Assembly: GCA_049700215.1 (NCBI GenBank)
Contig: JBNAVT010000008.1
Span: 860 to 64,859, forward strand
Direction: 5' to 3'
Length of the DNA stretch: 64,000 nt
Source of the DNA: Thermoproteota archaeon
GTDB lineage: Archaea; Thermoproteota; EX4484-205; JAAOZP01
The translations under genes were made by a program, and so were the position numbers. The notes under the pieces are model-generated. The model was not told the DNA's origin, searched no databases, and worked only from the letters and a program-made list of their open reading frames with translations. Shown here piece by piece: positions 39,476 through 49,186 of the stretch; position 1 is the stretch's first letter, and each line of letters opens with the position of its first letter.

Positions 39476-39688
39476 TTGGTTAAAACCATAACCATTAGAG
39501 AAGAAGTCTACAGAAGGTTGCTGGCTGTTAAGCGGGAGGGTGAAAGCTTCAGCGAGCTGCTTGAAAGGCTCATCGAGGAAGCGAACCCTGTTGATGTCCT
39601 AGTAAGGCTTAGAGGCTGTGTCGAGATTAAGGACAAGGAGAAGCTTCTCTCAGAAATGTACTCATTAAGGGCTGAACGTAGAACATGA
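39476..39688 (+). CDS. vapB: antitoxin (VapB-like)
   Basis: 70-aa protein overlapping the downstream PIN gene by 4 nt (ATGA). Confidence 0.55.
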   Translation: MVKTITIREEVYRRLLAVKREGESFSELLERLIEEANPVDVLVRLRGCVEIKDKEKLLSEMYSLRAERRT

Positions 39689-40065
39689 TTATTTTAGACA
39701 CTGATATTTTAATCGAGATTTTCGACAAGAAGTCTGCAAAAGGTGAAGAGGCATTGAAGAAAATTATCGAAAAAGATGAGCCAATATGCATAACTGTCGT
39801 CAATCTTCACGAAATCCTCTATGGGTTAAGCAAATACGCTAAGCCGGTGAAGGATGTTTTAAGGCTTCCGGTTTTAAACTATAGGAAGGAAGACGCGATC
39901 CTAGCGTCTGAATTAGAACTGAAAACAGAGCGGAAGGGAAAACCTGTTCGAAGGACAGATGCTATGATAGCTGCCATGACGATCAACAATAACGCGAAAC
40001 TTTACACGTTCAATATGAAGCACTTTAGACCATTAGAAGAACACGGGTTAAAACTTCTACAGTAG
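39685..40065 (+). CDS. vapC: PIN-domain toxin (VapC)
   Basis: N-terminal IILDTDILIE with conserved acidic residues of the PIN fold. Confidence 0.75.
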   Translation: MIILDTDILIEIFDKKSAKGEEALKKIIEKDEPICITVVNLHEILYGLSKYAKPVKDVLRLPVLNYRKEDAILASELELKTERKGKPVRRTDAMIAAMTINNNAKLYTFNMKHFRPLEEHGLKLLQ

Positions 40066-40504: not shown

Positions 40505-40765
40505 TTGTCCGGTTACCGTTGGGGCTGGCGGCGGAGAAAGGGCCCGGGAAGACCCATTAAGCCGAGAGTGATCAACGGTTTTCCGAGGGCTAACAGGTTT
40601 ATCCCAGCGTCTTTGGAGGGGACTTCCATTTCTAGCGAAGAGCGGGTTAAGATGACTATTGATGAGTATGAAGCACTGCGGCTAGTTGATTACGAGGGCT
40701 TACTGCAGGAGGAGGCGGCTCAGAGGATGGGTGTTTCATGGAGCACTGTGGCGGTGTTTAAGTAG
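40505..40765 (+). CDS. DUF134/UPF0251-family predicted DNA-binding protein, C-terminus apparently disrupted
   Basis: GRPIKPRVINGFPRANRFIP ... LLQEEAAQRMGVS matches the UPF0251 consensus. The expected C-terminal continuation (SARKKVATMLAEG / ELVIASND) is found in two other frames within 40750-40835. Confidence 0.5.
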   Translation: MSGYRWGWRRRKGPGRPIKPRVINGFPRANRFIPASLEGTSISSEERVKMTIDEYEALRLVDYEGLLQEEAAQRMGVSWSTVAVFK

Positions 40766-40875
40766 TGCGCGGAAAAAGGTGGCAACTATGCTTGCCGAGG
40801 GGCGGAGCTAGTTATCGCATCGAATGACACGTAGCCTCCTTGGGTGAGCTTTTTAGGGAATTTTGTGCAAAGGCA

Positions 40876-40887
40876 AAATTTATATAT
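40876..40887 (+). promoter_or_regulatory. putative archaeal TATA box (AAATTTATATAT) upstream of the small-protein operon
   Basis: AT-rich TATA-like element about 35-45 nt upstream of the ATG at 40920. Confidence 0.3.
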
Positions 40888-40919
40888 GTGCAATTGCACG
40901 AAATAATTGGTGATGGAAG

Positions 40920-41117
40920 ATGGGACGGAGGGGCCCATGGCCTGGAGGGGGGCCGTTCAGTTTCCTGCCACCGTGGCAGAGGCCTGGCTGGTGGTGGTTC
41001 GGCAGGGGTGCGTGCTGGTGGCTATTTAACCCGTATACCGCGGTCACACCGTACTATTATCCACCGTATAGCCCGTACTATGGAAGAGGATACTATTACC
41101 CGTATGCTTGGAGGTGA
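40920..41117 (+). CDS. small W/Y/P/G-rich protein (DUF5320-like N-terminal module, no coiled-coil tail)
   Basis: 65 aa: MGRRGPWPGGGPFSF...YYYPPYSPYYGRGYYYPYAWR. Composition matches the N-termini of the next two proteins. Two other frames are also open here (40840..41121 and 40913..). Confidence 0.4.
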   Translation: MGRRGPWPGGGPFSFLPPWQRPGWWWFGRGACWWLFNPYTAVTPYYYPPYSPYYGRGYYYPYAWR

Positions 41118-41123
41118 TTAAAA

Positions 41124-41609
41124 ATGGGGTATAGATGGAGGAGAATGTACTATCTGACGGGGCTGCCTGGCTGGATGAGGTTCGGCTATTCACCAGGATG
41201 GGTAGGCAGATCGCCTACAGGTCTTCCGCCGACAGCGGAATGGATTATTTCAAGCGGCCTAATGCCGCAATACAGGCAGTATCTCTCAGGCAAGCGTGCG
41301 TCGCAAATTCCGTTGTACACGCCTGGGGCTCCTGTAAGCAAGGAGGATGAGATCCGGATGCTGGAGGAGCAGGCTAAATCCATTGAAATACAACTTGAAG
41401 CAACGAGAAAGAGGCTGGAAGATTTGAAGAAGAGTCCTTCGGTTGAAGAGTCTCAAACTTATTACCCGCTGCCTTTCATGGGGCCGTCACCCCGGGAAGA
41501 ACTGGCTCAGCTCGAGGACTATAGAAGGCACTTGGATGAGGAGGTTAAAGGCGTTGAAACGAGGATCGAGGAGCTGAGGAAGCTCCTAGAAAAAGAACAA
41601 TCTAAGTAG
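41124..41609 (+). CDS. DUF5320-like protein (W/G-rich N-terminus + conserved C-terminal coiled-coil motif)
   Basis: SKEDEIRMLEEQAKSIEIQLEATRKRLEDLKK motif plus a second degenerate copy. GGTGA spacer before the ATG. Confidence 0.55.
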   Translation: MGYRWRRMYYLTGLPGWMRFGYSPGWVGRSPTGLPPTAEWIISSGLMPQYRQYLSGKRASQIPLYTPGAPVSKEDEIRMLEEQAKSIEIQLEATRKRLEDLKKSPSVEESQTYYPLPFMGPSPREELAQLEDYRRHLDEEVKGVETRIEELRKLLEKEQSK

Positions 41610-41622
41610 GAGGTGAACATGT

Positions 41623-41865
41623 TTGCCATACGGCATGGGACCGTGGGGTTGGTTCACATACCCGTATTGGGCTTGGTGGAGGTGCAGATGGTTCCCCTGG
41701 CTCCCGAGATGGTGGTGGATGGGAATATATGGTCCAATAACACCCTACTGGATGCCTCCGATGTCGAGGGAAGATGAAATAGCGATGCTACAGGAAGAGG
41801 CGAGGATACTCGAGCAGGAGCTGGACGCGATTAGGAAGAGGCTTGAAGAACTCGGGAAACAGTGA
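41623..41865 (+). CDS. DUF5320-like protein (Trp-rich N-terminus + coiled-coil motif)
   Basis: MPYGMGPWGWFTYPYWAWWRCRWFPWLPRWWW... followed by SREDEIAMLQEEARILEQELDAIRKRLEELGKQ. Confidence 0.55.
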   Translation: MPYGMGPWGWFTYPYWAWWRCRWFPWLPRWWWMGIYGPITPYWMPPMSREDEIAMLQEEARILEQELDAIRKRLEELGKQ

Positions 41866-41871
41866 CATGAG

Positions 41872-42468
41872 ATGAAGGTAGCAGTGTCCGCGGCCGGTGG
41901 AAGCCTGGATTCTCCGGTTGACCCCAGGTTTGGCCGATGCCAGTATTTTGTCATCGTTGACATGGAAACAATGTCGTTTGAAGCTATTCCAAATACGAGT
42001 ACGGGGTTGATGGGTGGTGCGGGGATTCAAGCAGCACAAGAGATAGCAGGCAGAGGTGTTGAGGCAGTGATAACTGGGAACGTTGGTCCGAACGCATATC
42101 AAGTACTTTCTTCCGCAGGGATCAGGATCTTGATAGGAGCATCCGGAACAGTAAGAGAGGCTGTTGAAATGTTCAAAAGAGGGCAACTCCAAGATGCTGC
42201 TGCATTAGGCCCTCCTGAGTTCGGAGCAGGCCCAGGTAGGGGCAGAGGGTTTGGAACCGGAATGGGTAGAGGCATGGGGCGCTTCTTCCCCCCACCTTAT
42301 CAACAAGCACCTGTGAGCCGACAGACGCAAGCTGCATCCATGTCTAGAGAAGAAGAGATACTGATGTTAGAGAGGCAAATGGATTCCTTGCAACAGCAAC
42401 TGAATCAAGTAAGGAAGAGGCTTAAAGAGCTGAAGGGTGCAGACCAAGAATCTTCAAAATCCGAGTGA
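41872..42468 (+). CDS. NifX/NifB-like (dinitrogenase FeMo-cofactor-biosynthesis family, COG1433) domain fused to Gly/Arg-rich linker and DUF5320-like coiled-coil tail
   Basis: N-terminus MKVAVSAAGGSLDSPVDPRFGRCQYFVIVD...AVITGNVGPNAYQVLSSAGIRIL. C-terminus GRGRGFGTGMGRGMGRFFPPPY...SREEEILMLERQMDSLQQQLNQVRKRLKELKG. Confidence 0.7.
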   Translation: MKVAVSAAGGSLDSPVDPRFGRCQYFVIVDMETMSFEAIPNTSTGLMGGAGIQAAQEIAGRGVEAVITGNVGPNAYQVLSSAGIRILIGASGTVREAVEMFKRGQLQDAAALGPPEFGAGPGRGRGFGTGMGRGMGRFFPPPYQQAPVSRQTQAASMSREEEILMLERQMDSLQQQLNQVRKRLKELKGADQESSKSE

Positions 42469-42824
42469 GGGATGAGGATATGAGTAGGCTTAGAATCGCG
42501 ATCTCAACGAAAGGGGAGAAGGGTTTAGAGGACGAGGTTTCAGAAGTGTTTGGTAGAACAAATACTGTCACAATCGTGGACATGGTAAACGGAGAAGTGA
42601 AGAACGTGCAGGTGCTTAAGAATCCGGCTGCATCCTTCAAGTTCGGCGCCGGCCCTATTCTGGTCAAGACCCTAATAGATATGGATGTAAATGTCGTGGT
42701 ATCAGGTGAACTTGGTCCAAGTGCTTCAGAGTTGATTGAAGACCATAAGATATCCAAAGTCATCGTAAAGCCAGGCACGCCAGTGAAAGAAGCCATTAAA
42801 ACTATTGAGTTACAGTTAAGCTGA
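42465..42824 (+). CDS. NifX/NifB-like (COG1433) domain protein
   Basis: LRIAISTKGEKGLEDEVSEVFGRTNTVTIVD...VVVSGELGPSASELI. Start overlaps the previous stop. Confidence 0.7.
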   Translation: MRDEDMSRLRIAISTKGEKGLEDEVSEVFGRTNTVTIVDMVNGEVKNVQVLKNPAASFKFGAGPILVKTLIDMDVNVVVSGELGPSASELIEDHKISKVIVKPGTPVKEAIKTIELQLS

Positions 42825-42857
42825 GATACATTAAATAATTCGCAAACTACACAAGGC

Positions 42858-43334
42858 TTGGCGTCAAAAACAGGATCTTCTTCGGTGCTCGAAACATTAA
42901 CTTTTGGTCCTGTTCCATCTCCTGTTCCATCAAGACGATTAGGTAGGAGTTTGGGAGTGAATAACATTCCACTGAAAAAATGCACGTATTCATGCGTCTA
43001 CTGCCAATTGGGGAAAACTAGGAATACAACCACCGAAAGGAGGATCTTTCATGAAACAGAGGAGATTTTCCAAGCTGTGAAAAGAAAAGTCGATGAAGCA
43101 ATGCTAAGGAACGAAAAGATCGATTATTTGTCTTTCGTCCCGGATGGGGAGCCAACGCTGGAGCTTGAATTGGGCGAGCAGATTTCAGTCCTTAGGGTGC
43201 TTAACATTCCGATAGCTATCTTGACCAATGCTTCACTGGTATGGAAGGAACCTGTTAGGAAAGATTTAAGCGCGCTCTCTAAAGAAGGTGAATGCAGATT
43301 GGCAAATCATCGAGAAACTCTTACAAAGAGGTAA
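42858..43334 (+). pseudogene. radical SAM enzyme, N-terminal fragment only
   Basis: GPVPSPVPSRRLGRSLGVN...CTYSCVYCQLG (CX3CX2C) and DGEPTLE SAM-binding motif. The ORF ends after 158 aa and is followed by about 300 nt of AT-rich non-coding DNA. Confidence 0.5.
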
Positions 43335-43630
43335 GCTTAGAGAGCTTGAATATGAAAATAATACATACTATATGAGAAGATTATCATTAGAATAAAAAGC
43401 AAGACGCTGAATATGCACAAAAGGGATTGTTCTATTGAGGTTTATGAGAAGATAAGTGATTAAGGTAAATGAATTTTTAAGCCTCATATTGGGCTTAGTC
43501 TTTCATTTGATTGTTCTTCAATGAATTCACAGTGTTTAGAGGTACGTGCTGTGGAGGCAGGAAAACTAAACTCTTTTTAGCTCATTTGCTCGAGCCTTTA
43601 CACGTTCGATCATTATGCAGACGTCATATA

Positions 43631-43984
43631 TTACATCAATACTGTTTTCTTCGCAAAATTTGATGCTTTTTTCGATCCCGAGCCTGGTTGCATCCAAACC
43701 TTCGTGATCCCGAGTTTTCTGCAGGTTTCAACTATCTTTTCTGTTACTTCTGGAGGAACTACAATATTAACAATGTCTGGTTTTACTGGTAGGCTCCCAA
43801 GATTTGGATAACATTTATTGCCTAAGTTCTCATCTGCATTCGGGTTTACGGCGTAAACTTCGTACCCAGCATTCTTCAAATCTTTATACACTTGATGACC
43901 ATATTTCTTGGGATCACGGCTCACACCGACAACAGCGAAAACGTTTTTCTTACTCAGAAACACCCTTATTAATTCTTCACTCAT
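43631..43984 (-). CDS. CoA-binding domain protein
   Basis: NVFAVVGVSRDPKKYGHQVYKDLKNAGYEVYAVNP is typical of the CoA_binding_2 fold. Confidence 0.7.
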   Translation of the reverse strand: MSEELIRVFLSKKNVFAVVGVSRDPKKYGHQVYKDLKNAGYEVYAVNPNADENLGNKCYPNLGSLPVKPDIVNIVVPPEVTEKIVETCRKLGITKVWMQPGSGSKKASNFAKKTVLM

Positions 43985-44039
43985 ATTCGTGCTCCTACTT
44001 ACTATTCGTTTTATGTATTTCTCTTTACAGTCAATCTCA

Positions 44040-44303
44040 TTAACCCTGAAGATAGCGTGTTATTCTTGGCTCCAACATTCGTCTAGGCATTGCGCCGACG
44101 ATCCTATCTACAAGTTTTCCGTTTTTAAACACCAACAGTGTCGGGATACTCACTATTTCATACTGTGCGCTAGCTTCTGGATTCTCATCCACGTTCAGCT
44201 TTCCAAATAGGATTTTCCCGGAATAATCTCGTGCTAGCCCCTCTATAATAGGTGCAATCATATGGCACGGGCCACACCAAGGCGCCCAACAATCAACAAC
44301 CAC
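44040..44303 (-). CDS. trxA: thioredoxin (possibly 44040..44348 if the in-frame TAG at 44316..44318 is read through or erroneous)
   Basis: WAPWCGPC active site with the C-terminal thioredoxin fold. GTG start at 44303. Upstream in frame: [23 protein letters not shown], a canonical thioredoxin N-terminus. Confidence 0.75.
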   Translation of the reverse strand: [87 protein letters not shown]

Positions 44304-44638
44304 CAGCGAATGATTCTAAATCGTTTCCTTAAAGTTTGCATCAGTCATCTTAACAGGTTCTTTCAAGGATGTTTCTTGGTTTTCAAGAGCCTCTTGGTTA
44401 TGCCTATTATAGGCTCTCTTCATAATTTCTCGCATTTTTGCTTGCTTGATTCTTTCAAGCTCTGCGTCTTCATTTTTCTCCATCTAGAATACTGCGGGTC
44501 ACACATAAAATACTAGTATAAAAATCTTAAGGAAAAATAAAACCCATACCATCTTCAATGCGGGCTAAATCGTCTATCTGCCTAATTGCTATAGATTGTA
44601 CCTTACGCAGCTCCCCATCATTTGACCAAAAGCCTCGT

Positions 44639-45268
44639 CTATCTCTTAATGGTCTTTACACACAGAAAACTTCCTTGATGCGGATCATTCTTCGGGTCTT
44701 CTACAACAGGGGTGGACGAAGGCGGATAGGTTAGAGTCGATTTATAATCTACAATTTTAAAACTATGCTTTTCGAGTAGTTCTTCAAGTTCCAGTAAACT
44801 ATAGAAACGTGCATAACGGTAGAAGCGATGACCCTGTTTAGCCTTCTCAACATAAAGCTGACCCCAAGATGAATCCCTGACGATGATACACACCGCTAGA
44901 ACGCCACTAGGTTTCAAAATCCTATAAATCTCTTTCAAGACTGTTTCCGGGTCATCGAGAAAACACAAAGTAACCGTCATCAAAACATAATCAAACATTT
45001 TGTCTGGAAACGGTAAAAACTCCGCTAAGGCTCTGATAACTTGTATGCCTCGTTTCACAGCGGTTCTTAGCATCTGATTGGAAACGTCTATTCCTATTTG
45101 CACTTTCGTTGAGGAAGCGAAAATACCGGTACCAACACCTATATCGAGCCCTAACCCTTTAAGATCAAGGGCCTTAATTGCCCGTATTTCTGACTCAAGA
45201 ACTTCGGAGTGCTGAGAATACCAAGAATCATAATCTTCTGAAAATTGCTCAAACACTCTATATGACAT
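44639..45268 (-). CDS. class I SAM-dependent methyltransferase
   Basis: Motif I LDIGVGTGIF; post-I acidic residue. Confidence 0.7.
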   Translation of the reverse strand: MSYRVFEQFSEDYDSWYSQHSEVLESEIRAIKALDLKGLGLDIGVGTGIFASSTKVQIGIDVSNQMLRTAVKRGIQVIRALAEFLPFPDKMFDYVLMTVTLCFLDDPETVLKEIYRILKPSGVLAVCIIVRDSSWGQLYVEKAKQGHRFYRYARFYSLLELEELLEKHSFKIVDYKSTLTYPPSSTPVVEDPKNDPHQGSFLCVKTIKR

Positions 45269-45508
45269 TCAACACTCTAAAATAAAGTGTCCAATATAAA
45301 GGTTTTGAACTTCTCTACCTTTTAACCTATGCTAGAAGGGCCATTGCAACCCCTCCTTTCAAATCATGTGAGGAAATCTCTGTCCGTTGTTTCCACCATG
45401 CTTAAGCTTTTCACAAGTCTCCGCGAGTTCAAGGTGAAAAATTAAAAATCTTGAGATGCTCTTGGTAAGAAAAAAACTTAAATATTACAAGCCTGATACT
45501 GGCGCGCT

Positions 45509-46864
45509 ATGAAAAATGAGAATAAGTATGACATAGTGATCATCGGTGGCAGCGCAAGTGGATTTACAGCGGCATATACAGCTAAAGTGATTTATAAAGA
45601 CAAGTCCATTCTTCTTATAAAGAACGAAAGTAAAACGCTTATACCATGTGCGATACCATACTTAGCTGCTACATTAGAAAGTTGTGATAAGGATTTAATG
45701 CCATATGCGCTTCTATCCAATCAAGGAGTAAAGGTTGTGATTGACGATGTTGTTGATGTTGATAGAAATAATAAAAAAGTTGTTACTGCTTCTGGGAATT
45801 CTTATGAGTATGATAAACTAATTTTGGCTACTGGATCTTTGCCCTTCGTTCCATCTTCAATAGAAGGTACGAGCCTAAAGAATGTATTTAAAGTTTCAAA
45901 GAGATATGAAGAAGTTGAAGCTTTGCAAAAAGCATTACGAGGTGCAAATAAGATTGTTATAATTGGTGGTGGTTTCATAGGAGTAGAGCTTGCTGATGAT
46001 CTATCAAACCTTAAGAAGGATGTTACCATAGTAGAGATGCTCCCGCATTGTTTACTCTTAAATTTTGATGAGGAATTTGCAATCAAAGCAGAAGACGAGT
46101 TGAAACGGAAAGGAATAAAAGTAATAACTGGTAGAACAGTTAAAAAGATTTATGGCAAAGAGGAAGCAGAATGGGTGGAGCTTGAGGGTGGAGAGAAGAT
46201 AGATGCAGACTTGGTTGTATTTTCAGTTGGTTATCGTCCAAATATTGAATTGGCTAAAAAAATTGGCTTGAAAATTGGATACTATGGTATTCTTGTTGAC
46301 GAGTTTATGAGAACGAGCGACCCTAATATATTCGCAATTGGGGACGTGACTGAAAAAAGACATTTCTTTTTGGGGAAAACTGTGTCGATCATGCTGGCTT
46401 CAATTGCCTGTCAAGAAGCGAGAGTTGCTGTTGTGAATTTATATGGTGTAAAAGTAAGTAAAAAGATGAGTGGCCAGGTTGGAGCTTTTTCAACGAAAGT
46501 TGGAGATTTAGCATTAGTGTGCATTGGCGTTACTGAAAGCCTAGCTAAAAAGGAGAATATCGAATACATTGTTGGAAGGTCGAAGGTTGTCAATAGACAT
46601 CCTGCTTACTTACCCGGTGCAAGCGAAACAGAACTAAAGCTAATGTTCCTAAAGGATGGGACTCTTATTGGAGCACAGGCTTCTTGTGTATGCGATGAAG
46701 TTGCAGAGCTTGTTAATGCCATTGCGATAGCAATTCAGAATAAGATGAAAATCGACGAAATCATTACAATGCAGTATGGGAGCCATCCAAGGTTATCAGC
46801 ATCTCCAGTAGTAAATCCAGTTATAATGGCAGCTCTAGATGCATATAGACAATTTCAACTTTAG
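45509..46864 (+). CDS. FAD-dependent pyridine nucleotide-disulfide oxidoreductase (CoA-disulfide reductase / NADH oxidase family)
   Basis: DIVIIGGSASG and KIVIIGGGFIGVELADDL dinucleotide motifs; single redox Cys in LIPCAIPYL near the N-terminus. Confidence 0.75.
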   Translation: MKNENKYDIVIIGGSASGFTAAYTAKVIYKDKSILLIKNESKTLIPCAIPYLAATLESCDKDLMPYALLSNQGVKVVIDDVVDVDRNNKKVVTASGNSYEYDKLILATGSLPFVPSSIEGTSLKNVFKVSKRYEEVEALQKALRGANKIVIIGGGFIGVELADDLSNLKKDVTIVEMLPHCLLLNFDEEFAIKAEDELKRKGIKVITGRTVKKIYGKEEAEWVELEGGEKIDADLVVFSVGYRPNIELAKKIGLKIGYYGILVDEFMRTSDPNIFAIGDVTEKRHFFLGKTVSIMLASIACQEARVAVVNLYGVKVSKKMSGQVGAFSTKVGDLALVCIGVTESLAKKENIEYIVGRSKVVNRHPAYLPGASETELKLMFLKDGTLIGAQASCVCDEVAELVNAIAIAIQNKMKIDEIITMQYGSHPRLSASPVVNPVIMAALDAYRQFQL

Positions 46865-46915
46865 TTTACTACCAATTATAGCGTGCACTAAGGAGGCTAG
46901 GGCAGATGAATACGT

Positions 46916-47442
46916 TTAACTATTTTCAAAATATGCTCTCCCAGCATTCGCGCTTCTTTTAAGGCTTCCTCGTTCTCTCAAAATATCGCCTTTTCGGAAC
47001 GCGTAACCTGAGCATCCAGGAACCTTTATTACTCTCAATCTGTCCAGATACTCATCCATCTCGTTTATAGCACCTCCGATATTTCTTCTTCCGATAACAA
47101 CCCAAGTCCCGATCTTATTTTCAAGCTGCCCTTTTCGTAAATACCATGTTCTTTCCATGAAAGCTCTCATGCGTGATGTTACGCCTCCCATATATGATGG
47201 GCTAGCCAAAATGATGACACTTGCTTCCTTAATCTTTGGGCACAGCTTTCGCATATCATCTTTAATTATGCATTCGTAACTCTCTTCGCAGAAACAGCAT
47301 CCTTCGCACGGCCTGATATCATAGTTTTTTAAGAAAATTATTTCTGTTTTCAATTCCTTCCTTAAAACTCTTAAATTGCTTCCAATAAATAAGCCGTGTT
47401 TCCATCTTCATGTGGAGAACCAAGAATCCCAATTGCTTTCAT
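46916..47442 (-). pseudogene. iron-sulfur flavoprotein / NADPH-dependent FMN reductase-family gene interrupted by a frameshift
   Basis: MKAIGILGSPHEDGNTAYLLEAI-stop (47442..47372) in one frame. It continues as ...NLRVLRKELKTEIIFLKNYDIRPCEGCCFCEE...ASPSYMGGVT in another frame (TTG-initiated ORF 46916..47353). Confidence 0.55.
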
Positions 47443-47489: not shown

Positions 47490-48350
47490 TTATCCTATAA
47501 CTTCCTCCATTATGTTCCAGATCTGCTTTATTGCCCTGCTAATGTCGCTATCCGTAGCATAGTCGATCACCGGCAATCCATTGACTATAGCATCTACTGC
47601 AGCCTTGTCAAACGGTATTAGCCCAGCAACATCAACAGCATTCCGTCTACAATAATTCAGGATTTCCTCAGTATTCTTCTCATTAACGTCATACATGTTT
47701 ACGATAACAATCGGTTTAATTCTAAAATGATTAATAACTCGTATTAACCTCTCCAAGTCGTGAATCCCCGACATAGTCGGCTCAGCCACAGCGATCGCGA
47801 TATCTATGCCTGTCATCGTTGCGAATAGCGGGCAGCCTAATCCAGGTGGGCCGTCGATTAGAATCAAGTCAGCATTTTCTTCTTCAGCAATTCGTTTTGC
47901 CTTATTCCTAACCATTGTCACGAGCTTTCCCGAGTTTGATTCAGTAGCATTCAGTTTTGCATGAACCATTGGGCCATACTTAGTCTTTGAAGTAAACATG
48001 TACCCAGATATCTTTTCATGCGTTTTTATCGCGTTTACGGGGCACACATGATAACATACAGCGCAGCCTTCACATAAGAACGGTTCAATTCGGAGATTCT
48101 TAATAGCATTAAACCTGCAATGAGACTCGCATAACCCACACCTTATACATTTGCTTTCATCGATCTCATATAGCTTGGAGCCGTGAAACTCTCTGCTCGA
48201 CATGATTTCCGGTTTCAACAGTAAGTGTAGCATAGCTGAATCGACATCGCAATCCGCGATTACTTTATTCTTTGCCAAGCATGAAAAGCTTGCAGCTATA
48301 GTGGTTTTGCCGGTTCCGCCTTTCCCGCTGACAATCGCAACCTGCTTCAT
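47490..48350 (-). CDS. MinD-superfamily P-loop ATPase with inserted 2x[4Fe-4S] ferredoxin domain (COG1149)
   Basis: Walker A VSGKGGTGKTT with the insert CIRCGLCESHC...CEGCAVCYHVCP. Confidence 0.8.
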   Translation of the reverse strand: MKQVAIVSGKGGTGKTTIAASFSCLAKNKVIADCDVDSAMLHLLLKPEIMSSREFHGSKLYEIDESKCIRCGLCESHCRFNAIKNLRIEPFLCEGCAVCYHVCPVNAIKTHEKISGYMFTSKTKYGPMVHAKLNATESNSGKLVTMVRNKAKRIAEEENADLILIDGPPGLGCPLFATMTGIDIAIAVAEPTMSGIHDLERLIRVINHFRIKPIVIVNMYDVNEKNTEEILNYCRRNAVDVAGLIPFDKAAVDAIVNGLPVIDYATDSDISRAIKQIWNIMEEVIG

Positions 48351-49186
48351 TTTTTAACTATCACCTTGATATTCTGAAATAGTTCCTGAAATTTAGGCTT
48401 CCACTCCTCCATCTTTAACGCAAAAGGTATTCCCATAGAGTAGAGCTCCGCAATCCTCCTATCGTATGGTATCTCAAGGAGAATAGGTATCTCTCGGGTC
48501 CTGCAGTATTCGTGAACACGCAGGTCTCCTATTCCCGCCTTGTTTACTACCACCCCGAAAGGTACTTTAATCTCTGTTAACATGTCAACCGTCAGCTTCA
48601 GACCGTGCAAACCAAATGGCGTGGGCTCCGTCACGAGGATGCAAAAATCACTTCCGTAGACTGATTCTATAACCGGGCATGACGTTCCAGGAGGACAGTC
48701 GATTATCACATCCCTATCTTCTTCAATCTCATCCTTGACCGCGCGGATTAACGGTCCCGCAACCGGTTCCTCCGTATTCAATACTCCATAAACAAGCCGG
48801 ATACTACCTAAATTCGCTTTCCGCATGACTCCTACTTCCCTACTCTCTTCATCAATCGCTTTTCTTGGACAGACTATGCTGCATAATCCACAACTATGGC
48901 AAAGCTGGTCGAATATTATGATTCTGTTAGGCAATACCGCGATCGCGTTAAACTGGCAAGCCTCCGCGCATTTACCACACCCATCGCAAAGCTCCATATT
49001 CACCCTAGGCGCGGACGAATACACCCTCTTTTCCTCGTAATCCTCTATCTTGAAGAACAGGTAGTCATTCGGCTCCTGAACATCACAATCTAACAGTTGA
49101 ACTCCATCCCTTAACGAGAGAGCCATGTTCACAGCCACAGTAGTCTTCCCCGTCCCACCCTTACCGCTTGCGACCGAGACTATCAC
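48347..49186 (-). CDS. MinD-superfamily P-loop ATPase with inserted ferredoxin domain (COG1149), second paralog
   Basis: Walker A ASGKGGTGKTT with CDGCGKCAEAC...CHSCGLCSIVCP. Overlaps the downstream paralog by 4 nt. Confidence 0.8.
   Translation of the reverse strand: MIVSVASGKGGTGKTTVAVNMALSLRDGVQLLDCDVQEPNDYLFFKIEDYEEKRVYSSAPRVNMELCDGCGKCAEACQFNAIAVLPNRIIIFDQLCHSCGLCSIVCPRKAIDEESREVGVMRKANLGSIRLVYGVLNTEEPVAGPLIRAVKDEIEEDRDVIIDCPPGTSCPVIESVYGSDFCILVTEPTPFGLHGLKLTVDMLTEIKVPFGVVVNKAGIGDLRVHEYCRTREIPILLEIPYDRRIAELYSMGIPFALKMEEWKPKFQELFQNIKVIVKK

Follow-up and report, generated by a model that had tools for sequence, protein, structure and literature searches.

[quoted passage not shown]

Main

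A 64,000-nt stretch of a Thermoproteota archaeon contig (here called the window) carries an operon that encodes four DUF5320-type paralogs along with two NifX-like domains, in the order ORF65, ORF161, ORF80, a NifX-like::DUF5320 fusion and a tail-less NifX-like gene (Table 1). Conservation of the operon extends across anaerobic archaea and bacteria, where it is usually accompanied by a DUF134 gene and paired CbiA–ferredoxin ATPases, and the gene cluster as a whole, which also includes a radical-SAM gene, is restricted to anaerobes. A DUF5320 unit consists of a cationic region that lacks acidic residues and is rich in aromatic residues, Gly, Pro or Met, and of a 32-residue amphipathic C-terminal helix. 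We put at roughly 0.4 the probability that this helix joins the free tails to the NifX-like fusion, which would give a scaffold that holds iron–sulfur. The storage and traffic of iron and sulfur in strict anaerobes are poorly understood; IssA is, to our knowledge, the only Fe–S storage protein to have been characterised.

Table 1 Features of the operon and its surroundings (positions in the window)
Feature	Position (nt)	Strand	Description
DUF134 gene	40505..40811	+	Putative HTH regulator; PF02001, 56.2 bits
Candidate archaeal TATA box	40879..40886	+	TTTATATA, ~35 nt upstream of the ORF65 start; read from the sequence
ORF65	40920..41117	+	65 aa, type A, Trp/Tyr/Pro/Gly-rich; no acidic residues, pI 9.8, one Cys (C32)
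ORF161	41124..41609	+	161-aa DUF5320 protein, type B; PF17253, 35.4 bits
ORF161, helix motif	41337-41432	+	Residues 72-103
ORF161, second, diverged helix copy	41493-41606	+	Residues 124-161
ORF80	41623..41865	+	80-aa DUF5320 protein, type C, TTG start; PF17253, 37.5 bits
ORF80, Trp-rich core	41680-41748	+	Residues 20-42
ORF80, helix motif	41764-41859	+	Residues 48-79
NifX-like::DUF5320 fusion	41872..42468	+	198 aa; PF02579, 88.5 bits; PF17253, 43.6 bits
Fusion, Nitro_FeMo-Co domain	41872-42201	+	Residues 1-110; PF02579
Fusion, Gly/Arg/Met/Pro-rich, acid-poor linker	42202-42342	+	Residues 111-157; pI 11.8, 23% Gly
Fusion, helix motif	42343-42438	+	Residues 158-189; PF17253
Tail-less NifX-like gene	42465..42824	+	119 aa, GTG start; PF02579, 52.7 bits
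Degraded radical-SAM gene	42858..43395	+	PF04055, 33.5 bits
Two adjacent CbiA/MinD-type P-loop ATPase genes	47490-48350, 48347-49186	-	Pfam CbiA, Fer4, ParA

Results

The first-pass annotation of this DNA had described a C-terminal motif shared by three small proteins and a NifX-like protein, in three near-identical copies. The strings exist, but the copies are merely similar, with ungapped pairwise identities of 19/32, 17/32 and 16/32 (50–59%), and the carriers are two small proteins, ORF161 and ORF80, and the fusion; the first small ORF (ORF65) is without the motif. A motif HMM built from orthologs and run against every window ORF of 40 aa or more matches ORF161, ORF80 and the fusion only (E 5e-16, 7e-15 and 7e-13, respectively), and all three score above the gathering threshold of 27 bits for Pfam DUF5320 (PF17253). 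The motif is the C-terminal half of DUF5320 (profile positions ~60–99), a family of uncharacterised function that is already catalogued, so the motif is not new. The window proteins are new members of this known family, and their domain architecture was also known already. They match profile positions ~34–99 only, the Gly/Arg-rich N-terminal part not being covered; a canonical bacterial member from locus L069 (MPGFDGTGPRGMGPMTGGGRGFC, followed by the helix) matches positions 1–99. Here the profile thus takes in the helix and part of the linker, and the N-terminal cores of types A, B and C are not captured. ORF80 is identical to an NCBI entry named 'DUF5320 domain-containing protein [Thermoproteota archaeon]'. 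A full-text literature search turned up the name DUF5320 in just two papers, each time as a passing mention.

Across 167 motif copies the hydrophobic positions 6, 9, 13, 16, 20, 23, 27 and 30 are kept in a clean 3-4 heptad pattern, the surface residues E3, E5 and R26 of the helix are each conserved in at least 92%, and in 158 copies no more than 12 residues separate the motif from the C-terminus. The suggestion that the motif is a coiled coil fits the AlphaFold models, in which the C-terminal helix is confident (pLDDT ~80–92) and tails and linker score low (37–69). In ORF80 the helix spans residues 49–78 at pLDDT 84–92 and the N-terminal region scores 47–69; in the fusion the NifX-like domain exceeds 90, linker residues 113–157 stay below 50 and the helix (159–196) reaches ~80. 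On these models the DUF5320 N-terminal region is predicted not to fold alone. A structure search found no solved structure of the motif and gave generic coiled-coil matches only (E ≥0.025). Short coiled coils often match each other weakly.

The N-terminal parts had been singled out as extraordinarily rich in Trp, Tyr, Pro and Gly. Among window ORFs of 60 aa or more, ORF65 and ORF80 indeed rank highest in Trp+Tyr, with 12% Trp and 17% Tyr in ORF65 and 14% Trp in ORF80; the corresponding figures for the long ORFs are 1.2% Trp and 3.5% Tyr. In its 65 aa, ORF65 holds 23 aromatic residues, 12 Pro, 10 Gly, 6 Arg and 1 Cys. The aromatic regions are not mere low complexity, however: a separate conserved core marks each of the paralogs of types A, B and C. 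The tails in the window have a pI of 9.5–11.8 and 0–2% acidic residues. Stand-alone N-terminal regions of the family have medians of 72 aa, pI 9.8, 18% aromatic residues, 15% Pro and 13% Gly, and fusion linkers medians of 61 aa, pI 11.9, 31% Gly and 12% Met. A GRGxC-type Cys is found in ORF65 (GRGACWW) and, as RC, in ORF80, whereas neither ORF161 nor the fusion tail has one; Cys is missing from types B and D.

ORF65, the source of the string YYYPPYSPYYGRGYYYPY quoted in the first-pass annotation, carries the type A core GPWPG(R)GPFSxLPPWQRPGWxFGRGACWW. A Pfam search of it returned no domain match, DUF5320 included, and NCBI names it 'hypothetical protein ACPL4E_03805'. It is kept as a separate ORF in at least 15 loci at 51–78% identity, and in three loci (L021, L025 and L070) the type A core carries the helix motif; ORF65 itself is an N-terminal region of DUF5320 type that has no C-terminal helix.

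ORF161, with the type B core RRMYYLTGLPGWMRFGYSPGWVGRSPTGLPPTAEW, differs from the Pfam family in that its helix is duplicated, and the orthologs P0180 and P0182 also show two matched stretches. Orthologs occur in 60 of 80 loci, each locus from a different species; ANME and Methanosarcinales have single-helix forms of ~100 aa, and some type B relatives have a three-Cys module inserted in the tail. In ORF80 the Trp-rich core RCRWFPWLPRWWWxGIYGPITPY, which includes Cys21, is nearly invariant, and an alignment of 32 sequences has 6 invariant and 22 nearly invariant columns. The start position is shared by its orthologs, which have ATG, GTG or TTG there. The ATG at 41619 was discarded as a start codon for ORF80: it is out of frame and just 2 nt from the Shine–Dalgarno sequence, and the orthologs use the TTG-equivalent position.

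Small Trp/Tyr-rich ORFs could be chance products of a G+C-rich repeat or of another frame, with a motif likeness that is coiled-coil noise. Two alternative frames are open over ORF65 in the window itself, and weak mutual matching is common among short coiled coils, but this reading is already refuted. Compared with ten orthologs, pN/pS is 0.15–0.36 for ORF65, 0.15–0.30 for ORF161 and 0.12–0.29 for ORF80 (0.12–0.36 in all), and in the other two frames 0.90–4.4, mostly above 1. Stops interrupt the frame of the alternative ORF at 40840–41121 in 8 of 12 orthologs and that at 40907–41029 in 11 of 12; with the pN/pS values this rules out both as real genes and leaves the Trp/Tyr-rich frame, as first proposed, as the translated one. 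Orthologs in dozens of species, Pfam matches above threshold and a motif HMM that matches three window ORFs only likewise speak against a chance origin.

The genes are tightly packed, with gaps of 6, 13 and 6 nt from ORF65 to the fusion and then a 4-nt overlap of the fusion stop with the GTG start of the second NifX-like gene. The candidate TATA box suggests that the operon may have its own promoter. A bacterial-type promoter scan also picked the same stretch, which carries no weight in an archaeon. The last sense codon and TGA stop of ORF65 fall inside GGAGGTGA, the Shine–Dalgarno sequence of ORF161, and the overlap (tggtggTGA or ggaggTGA) recurs with a gap of 3–6 nt in 14 of 15 loci. This overlap accounts for the in-frame spacing of the two genes, which share a frame here and in 11 of the 15 loci, better than a single read-through gene does. 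We rejected the latter; type B proteins found elsewhere as complete single genes also count against it.

The third motif copy does sit on a NifX-like domain, as had been noticed; both NifX-like genes score above the PF02579 cut-off of 26.3 bits. The best solved relatives of the fusion domain are the orange protein ORP (2WFB, E 5e-22) and MTH1175 (1EO1), and with 1RDU the PDB relatives range from E 1e-20 to 1e-22. The linker, described as Gly/Arg-rich, is so, and is Met-rich and free of Trp as well. An exact look-up of the 198-aa fusion found no record, since the database copy is called 4 residues shorter (194 aa). The best 120 of 7890 fusion homologs all carry PF02579 and PF17253; the NifX–DUF5320 fusion is a common, widespread architecture. 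A NifX-like gene lies within 5 kb of the DUF5320 gene in 70 of the 80 loci, 40 of the 80 have the fusion itself, and in most Bathyarchaeia loci the tail-less gene directly follows the fusion. Joint action of the small proteins and the NifX-like domain, as first proposed, is thus well supported by the widespread fusion, the nearness of a NifX-like gene and the tight gene packing. A motif-only profile gave 1031 matches at E ≤1e-3 against 1.84 billion representatives. NifX is the sole Pfam partner among ten of the longest top matches, and no other fusion partner was found among these or among 167 motif ORFs in 81 loci; the variants seen are NifX fusions, tandem or duplicated DUF5320 units and the inserted three-Cys module.

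Upstream, the DUF134 gene is broken by a 2-bp deletion at ~40746/40747, leaving overlapping ORF pieces at 40505–40765 and 40686–40811; in a DNA alignment TG is missing, and the near-identical contig L001 has an intact gene of 102 aa. In 36 of the 80 related loci a DUF134 gene is found no more than 5 kb away; a literature search for DUF134 returned mostly unrelated DUF134x families. Downstream, the radical-SAM gene is represented by an N-terminal piece (ORF 42858–43334, 158 aa) with a CxxxCxxC motif and a C-terminal remnant (ORF 43288–43395). Homology ends at residue 137, most full-length orthologs have 320–350 aa, and many of them end in ...YY-type sequences that resemble the remnant. Because these two genes are damaged in the window, the cluster may be decaying in this genome. 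In each of the two CbiA/MinD-type ATPases a 2x[4Fe-4S] ferredoxin module is inserted, and the two are likely the ATPase partners of the cluster. Of the 80 loci, 46 have genes of this kind no more than 5 kb from a DUF5320 gene, usually right behind the NifX genes.

Discussion

The first-pass annotation had speculated that the tails form a condensate or act as a metal-cluster chaperone, and by analogy this would agree with the published behaviour of the tail of IssA, the iron–sulfur storage protein of Pyrococcus furiosus (PF2025; Vaccaro et al. 2017, PMC5524996). A member of the IssA clade is expected to bind thioferrate and to form Fe–S particles of 20–300 nm (Vaccaro et al. 2017). The IssA tail (70 aa, pI 10.7, 20% aromatic residues, 21% Gly, 16% Pro, one Cys) sits after an IPR003731 domain, is predicted to be unstructured with no helix and has been proposed to bind thioferrate electrostatically (PMC5524996). 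IssA and the fusion have the N-terminal IPR003731/NifX-like domain in common, and the DUF5320 N-terminal regions are close to the tail in length, pI and composition, a likeness of composition only; by description, ORF65 is almost a free-standing copy of it. Unlike the IssA tail, DUF5320 tails end in a conserved helix and also exist as separate proteins.

Published rules (Vaccaro et al. 2017, Suppl. Fig. 7) define the IssA clade by an N-terminal IPR003731 domain, a whole-protein pI ≥9, Gly making up ≥20% of the final 40 residues and fewer than five Cys; for IssX the limits are pI ≥8 and ≥10% Gly over that stretch. The fusion has the N-terminal domain (residues 1–110) and one Cys (family range 1–3), but by these rules its pI of 7.85 and terminal Gly of 2.5% place it in neither clade. 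Terminal Gly is low since the helix takes up this final stretch; the linker that precedes it has 23% Gly here and a family median of 31%. Among 39 fusions the median pI is 8.5, with 14 reaching 9 and 21 reaching 8.

The fusion domain is closest to the solved ORP structure, and the CbiA + 2x[4Fe-4S] ATPase pair of the window has the same make-up as Orp3/Orp4 of the Desulfovibrio ORP complex (PMC6345978). The window, like that complex with its NifX-like Orp8, combines a NifX-like protein with such an ATPase pair; in Desulfovibrio, Orp3/Orp4 co-purify with Orp8 and receive Fe–S clusters (PMC6345978). Both systems are restricted to anaerobes. The ORP complex uses a sigma-54 regulator, whereas the cluster in the window has a DUF134 gene instead, and neither the sigma-54 activator OrpR nor MrpORP is among the called genes of L001. 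Full MrpORP (Orp9, Mrp/NBP35–NifX) is absent here, as the NCBIfam MrpORP model reaches just 32–34 bits where 450 are required and matches nothing but the NifX part. The ORP literature examined describes no DUF5320 component, and the physiological role of the complex is unsettled, cell division having been proposed (PMC6345978). Sulfur globule proteins (SGP, PF17228), Gly/aromatic-rich structural proteins on an inorganic sulfur inclusion, are similar in composition only, and the canonical DUF5320 N-terminal region matches them weakly (E 0.0028, 18.9 bits, below the cut-off of 26.7). In contrast to DUF5320 proteins, they are secreted envelope proteins without the C-terminal helix motif.

We infer from these comparisons an oligomerisation through the helix, an orientation for that helix, a ligand and a role in storage or trafficking. 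The common helix, as the shared motif suggests, would be an oligomerisation handle by which the tail proteins bind each other and the NifX::DUF5320 fusion and so build a multivalent assembly. Its NifX-like domains may bind or nucleate anionic inorganic iron–sulfur species or a related thiometallate, which the cationic–aromatic tails would wrap and stabilise by charge and aromatic contacts, as proposed for the IssA tail; the CbiA–ferredoxin ATPases could load or unload clusters. It is a good deal more doubtful that the whole picture holds in its most specific form, with DUF5320 proteins as free-standing, modular IssA-type tails that dock through a shared, possibly antiparallel helix onto a NifX::DUF5320 nucleator to build an Fe–S or thiometallate storage particle or condensate. 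The conserved cores (for example RCRWFPWLPRWWW) and the helix surface residues point to a specific protein partner and fit loose mineral wrapping less well.

The same conserved cores and surface residues would suit a protein–protein interface with the ATPases. DUF5320 proteins could then serve the CbiA/MinD-type ferredoxin ATPases (Orp3/Orp4-like) as partner or regulatory subunits, with NifX as cargo. A flexible, Arg-rich peptide at the N-terminus of a dimerising helix protein would stimulate the ATPase or determine where it localises, in the manner of ParB, MinE or ParG with ATPases of the ParA/MinD family. ParA/MinD ATPases commonly work with small partners that have basic N-terminal peptides, and the paired CbiA–Fer4 genes found near DUF5320 genes are usually in the same gene string and are present in the window. 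The link to NifX is stronger than that to the ATPases, however; the ATPase genes of the window stand 5 kb off on the other strand with unrelated redox genes between, and no DUF5320–CbiA fusion was found among the 167 motif ORFs or ten of the longest top library matches. We regard such a role as unlikely on present evidence. The type C core (R)CRWFPWLPRWWW resembles the Trp-rich membrane-active peptides tritrpticin (VRRFPWWWPFLRR) and indolicidin, a likeness of composition, and Trp/Arg/Pro-rich cores might be interfacial membrane anchors that tether a NifX/ATPase complex. That would fit the localisation of MrpORP to the cell pole and the link of ORP proteins to septum positioning (PMC6345978), but the fusion tail and many family members are Gly/Met/Arg-rich without Trp, and there are no transmembrane segments or signal peptides, which makes membrane anchoring quite improbable.

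Little probability likewise falls to a role in nucleic-acid binding, in which the tails would be RGG/aromatic binders and DUF5320 proteins, with the DUF134 HTH protein, dimeric DNA or RNA regulators of the cluster. The tails are cationic with GRG/RGG-like repeats, a DUF134 gene adjoins in 36 of the 80 loci, and an archaeal survey flagged Methanosarcina mazei DUF134 and DUF5320 proteins for an RG-type quadruplex-binding motif (PMC7565180), although that match comes from a motif scan and not from an experiment. In types A to C it is Trp, Tyr and Pro that prevail, not RGG, the segment directly ahead of the helix is Pro-rich and not basic, which excludes a bZIP-like basic region and zipper, and three to four paralogs per operon together with a cofactor-domain fusion would be unusual for a regulator.

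For this window, the analysis rediscovered an existing Pfam family and a known domain architecture. The family itself is widespread, the helix-only profile leading to about a thousand 50%-identity clusters, nearly always beside or fused to NifX-like domains. The link between DUF5320 and the IssA tail offers a concrete, testable role for this common uncharacterised family and explains methanogen 'IssA homologs' that often end in a helix. If the storage-particle reading is true, the cluster would be a widespread, ferritin-like Fe–S store of strict anaerobes, unrecognised because its parts are annotated as DUF and 'NifX family' proteins.

Family identity and reading frame

Judged by profile scores, the 32-residue C-terminal helix motif corresponds to the C-terminal half of Pfam DUF5320 (PF17253), a 'family of unknown function': ORF161, ORF80 (small proteins are named by their length in residues) and the 198-aa fusion of a NifX-like protein to DUF5320 reach 35.4, 37.5 and 43.6 bits, above the cut-off of 27. 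ORF80 is identical to the NCBI entry 'DUF5320 domain-containing protein [Thermoproteota archaeon]', and ORF65 appears there as a 'hypothetical protein' and has no Pfam domain. The observation made in the first-pass annotation is genuine, but it rediscovers an existing family whose name ORF80 already bears. The three motif strings quoted there exist (ORF161 residues 72–103, ORF80 residues 48–79, fusion residues 158–189); described as near-identical, they share approximately 50–59% identity (16–19 of 32 residues, ungapped), a similarity far above chance. The motif had been placed on three small proteins as well as the fusion; it is carried by two of them, and ORF65, the origin of the quoted YYYPPYSPYYGRGYYYPY, is without it. 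Run over every ORF of 40 aa or more in the 64-kb window, a motif HMM built from orthologs matches just ORF161, ORF80 and the fusion (E 5e-16 to 7e-13), and ORF161 holds a second, diverged helix copy at residues 124–161. The reported Trp/Tyr richness stands: ORF65 and ORF80 contain 12–14% Trp, compared with 1.2% in the long ORFs of the window, and are the top two by Trp+Tyr content among ORFs of at least 60 aa.

The first-pass annotation had allowed that the Trp/Tyr-rich frame might not be the translated one. In a codon-by-codon comparison of ten orthologous loci (51–88% protein identity), pN/pS is 0.12–0.36 in the Trp/Tyr frames of all three small genes and 0.90–4.4, mostly above 1, in the other two frames, and the Trp/Tyr frame is open in every ortholog compared (n = 12). 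The frames of the alternative ORFs at 40840–41121 and 40907–41029 have stops in 8 and 11 of the 12 orthologs, respectively. ORF80 orthologs start at the equivalent position with ATG, GTG or TTG, and this coincidence supports the TTG start of ORF80. The small Trp/Tyr-rich ORFs are real genes under selection, and the reading that they are not genes is refuted.

A search for fusion partners, as the first-pass annotation had proposed, returned a single one. A 39-column helix-only profile retrieved 1,031 proteins (E ≤ 1e-3) from 1.84 billion cluster representatives; nearly all of the best 150 listed are short proteins that carry the motif right at the C-terminus, and the NifX-like domain is the sole Pfam partner in ten of the longest among these 150. 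PF02579 and PF17253 are both present in all 120 of the best of 7,890 fusion homologs. The NifX-like::DUF5320 pairing is a common, precomputed domain architecture that was already known, and a full-text literature search on DUF5320 turned up just two papers, each with a passing mention.

Operon structure

The genes form a compact run on the + strand from 40505 to 43395, in which the five central genes, from ORF65 to the second NifX-like gene, are separated by gaps of 6, 13 and 6 nt and then a 4-nt overlap, with a TTTATATA box approximately 35 nt 5' of ORF65. From this spacing the layout reads as a single, translationally coupled operon. The final codons and stop of ORF65 (..W-R/W-W + TGA, written ggaggTGA or tggtggTGA; 41106–41126) form the Shine-Dalgarno sequence of ORF161, 3–6 nt 5' of its ATG, and this overlap is kept in 14 of 15 loci (the same junction in L002–L036). 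Because the stop doubles as the Shine-Dalgarno sequence, ORF65 and ORF161 share a frame in 11 of the 15.

Features of the operon and its surroundings in the window
Feature	Position	Strand	Remarks
VapB antitoxin (PF02697, 60 bits) and PIN-domain VapC (PF01850, 50 bits)	39476–40065		~440 nt upstream of DUF134 gene
DUF134 gene	40505–40811	+	Frameshifted in window
ORF65	40920–41117	+
ORF161	41124–41609	+
ORF80	41623–41865	+	TTG start
NifX-like protein with long tail (fusion)	41872–42468	+	198 aa
Second NifX-like gene	42465–42824	+	Tail-less
Radical-SAM gene, remains	42858–43395	+	Includes 35-aa ORF at 43288–43395
Redox genes	43631–47353		Between operon and ATPases
Two CbiA-ferredoxin ATPase genes	47490–49186	−

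The DUF134 frameshift stems from a 2-bp deletion (TG out of a TGTGTG run, 40740–40750) when compared with contig L001, which is otherwise identical and has the gene intact (102 aa); an assembly error, variation between strains and a pseudogene are all conceivable. The radical-SAM gene is degraded in both contigs: homology in the 158-aa N-terminal remnant stops at residue 137, and the 35-aa ORF looks like the C-terminal end of the orthologs, most of which have 320–350 aa. The redox genes, named from the Pfam labels of L001 and two direct window scans, encode a CoA-binding protein, a thioredoxin, a SAM methyltransferase, a pyridine-nucleotide disulfide oxidoreductase and an FMN reductase.

Conserved tails and a common helix

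Across 80 loci from different species' genomes there are 167 motif-bearing ORFs, 1–4 per locus, whose tails fall into recurrent classes. Type A has the core GPWPGRGPFSxLPPWQRPGWxFGRGxCWW, type B (ORF161-like) RxMYYxTGLPGWMRFGYSPGWxGRSPTGLPPTA, type C (ORF80-like) RCRWFPWLPRWWWTGxYGPITPY and the canonical bacterial forms MPGFDGTGPRGMGPMTGGGRGFC..., and in the NifX fusions the linker runs from a (G-M-G-R-G)n repeat into a Pro-rich stretch. Type A proteins, including ORF65, are mostly without the helix; because the helix follows a type A core in L021, L025 and L070, ORF65 is a helix-less DUF5320 paralog. The ORF80 alignment has 6 invariant columns and 22 more that are at least 90% conserved, mostly within the Trp-rich core, and by this measure the aromatic regions are conserved sequence cores, beyond mere low complexity.

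Hydrophobic residues at motif positions 6, 9, 13, 16, 20, 23, 27 and 30 give a 3-4-3-4 pattern, and the surface residues E3, E5, K25, R26, E29 and K32 are nearly invariant. With E, E, K, K at the flanking e positions and Q, Q, R at the g positions, simple charge pairing would favour an antiparallel association of helices. AlphaFold models predict a helix-plus-disorder pattern, with a confident helix at pLDDT 84–92 in ORF80 (residues 49–78) and approximately 80 in the fusion (residues 159–196), a confident NifX domain above 90, and tails and linker at a low 37–69. A search for the motif in solved structures found none.

Some type B proteins (Hadesarchaea and others) contain an inserted module with three conserved Cys, C-x6-8-C-x13-15-C(P)xF (for example NCANYRDGFCTLYGIPIDPNTPVCPNF), a possible site of metal or cluster ligation; carriers are L022 4507–4995, L046 4530–5000, L050 6379–6855 and the library-search proteins P0237, P0272 and P0278, and no Pfam match covers the module in L022, P0237, P0272 or P0278. 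Another library protein, P0179 (226 aa), has a two-helix type B unit and a helix-bearing type C unit (RFHWLPWW...) in one chain; equivalents of ORF161 and ORF80 have either fused naturally here or been run together by gene calling. In the MAFFT alignment A3 (columns ~48–58), which includes the NifX-like domain and the tails, the invariant NifX-like PRFGRCQYF loop lines up with type C WWRCRWFPW and type A FGRGACWW, all three centred on a conserved (G)R-x0-2-C; this may be chance.

Genomic context and a possible role

Within 5 kb of the DUF5320 match, a NifX-like gene is found in 70 of the 80 loci, a CbiA/MinD-type ATPase with a 2x[4Fe-4S] insert in 46, a NifX::DUF5320 fusion ORF in 40, a DUF134 gene in 36 and a radical-SAM gene in 17. 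Every host lineage is known only from anoxic settings, among them Bathyarchaeia, Hadesarchaea, Brockarchaeota, Methanocellales, Methanosarcinales, ANME-1/2, Aminicenantes, Dehalococcoidia and Clostridia-type bacteria. To judge by what its closest relatives are called, the window itself comes from a Bathyarchaeia-type archaeon. Among solved structures, the Desulfovibrio orange protein ORP (2WFB, E 5e-22) comes closest to the NifX domain of the fusion, ahead of MTH1175. In the Desulfovibrio ORP complex, MrpORP delivers Fe-S clusters to Orp3/Orp4 (CbiA + 2x[4Fe-4S]) and the NifX-like Orp8, and the physiological role of the complex is unsettled (PMC6345978); a NifX-like protein and CbiA + 2x[4Fe-4S] ATPases are the parts it has in common with DUF5320 loci.

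Pyrococcus furiosus IssA consists of an IPR003731 (NifX-like) domain and a 70-residue tail (pI 10.7, 20% aromatic, 21% Gly, one Cys) that is cationic, rich in Pro and predicted to be unstructured; in the proposed model the tail wraps around chains of anionic thioferrate within particles of 20–300 nm (PMC5524996). The DUF5320 tails match this description quantitatively, as a likeness of composition: those of the window have a pI of 9.5–11.8 and 0–2% acidic residues, the stand-alone N-regions of 121 family members have medians of 72 aa, pI 9.8, 18% aromatic, 15% Pro and 13% Gly, and the linkers of 39 fusions 61 aa, pI 11.9, 31% Gly and 12% Met. ORF65 (65 aa; 12 Pro, 6 Arg, 23 aromatic, 10 Gly, 1 Cys) resembles in composition an IssA tail standing free. 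The fusion falls outside the published IssA clade rules in two respects, its pI (7.85) and its Gly content over the last 40 residues (2.5%), the latter because those residues are the helix; our claim, drawn by analogy, is that the fusion may work like IssA, not that it is one.

The Gly/Pro/aromatic N-region of a canonical bacterial DUF5320 protein (L069 3688–3951) weakly matches PF17228 sulfur globule protein, below threshold (E 0.0028, 18.9 bits; cut-off 26.7); these proteins are another class coating an inorganic sulfur inclusion, and the likeness is probably compositional. In L030, L038, L049–L057 and the ANME/Methanosarcinales loci, the fusion linkers are extended (G-M-G-R-G)n arrays in which Met reaches 23%. 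Such Met-rich repeats are reminiscent of the 'Mets' motifs that bind Cu(I)/Ag(I), and ORP binds a Mo-Cu-S cluster, so a thiometallate ligand other than Fe-S is conceivable for NifX::DUF5320.

The cores and the surface residues of the helix are very strongly conserved, which suits a protein interface more than a loose electrostatic wrap and speaks for the main rival to an IssA-like role. In that rival reading, which we consider unlikely overall, the CbiA-ferredoxin ATPases would have DUF5320 proteins as partner subunits. Weaker still are nucleic-acid binding jointly with DUF134 (compare PMC7565180), which we regard as improbable, and a role of the Trp/Arg cores as membrane anchors, to which we give equally little credence.

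The IssA-like reading, to which we assign a probability of roughly 40% as a whole, is that the common helix would act as an assembly handle linking the paralogous tails with the NifX fusion through oligomerisation, that NifX-like domains would hold or nucleate anionic Fe-S or thiometallate species, that the tails would stabilise these, and that the ATPases would load or unload them. What is modestly new is three conserved tail cores outside the Pfam model, a helix-less paralog in ORF65, and a quantitative match to the IssA tail that suggests a testable role.
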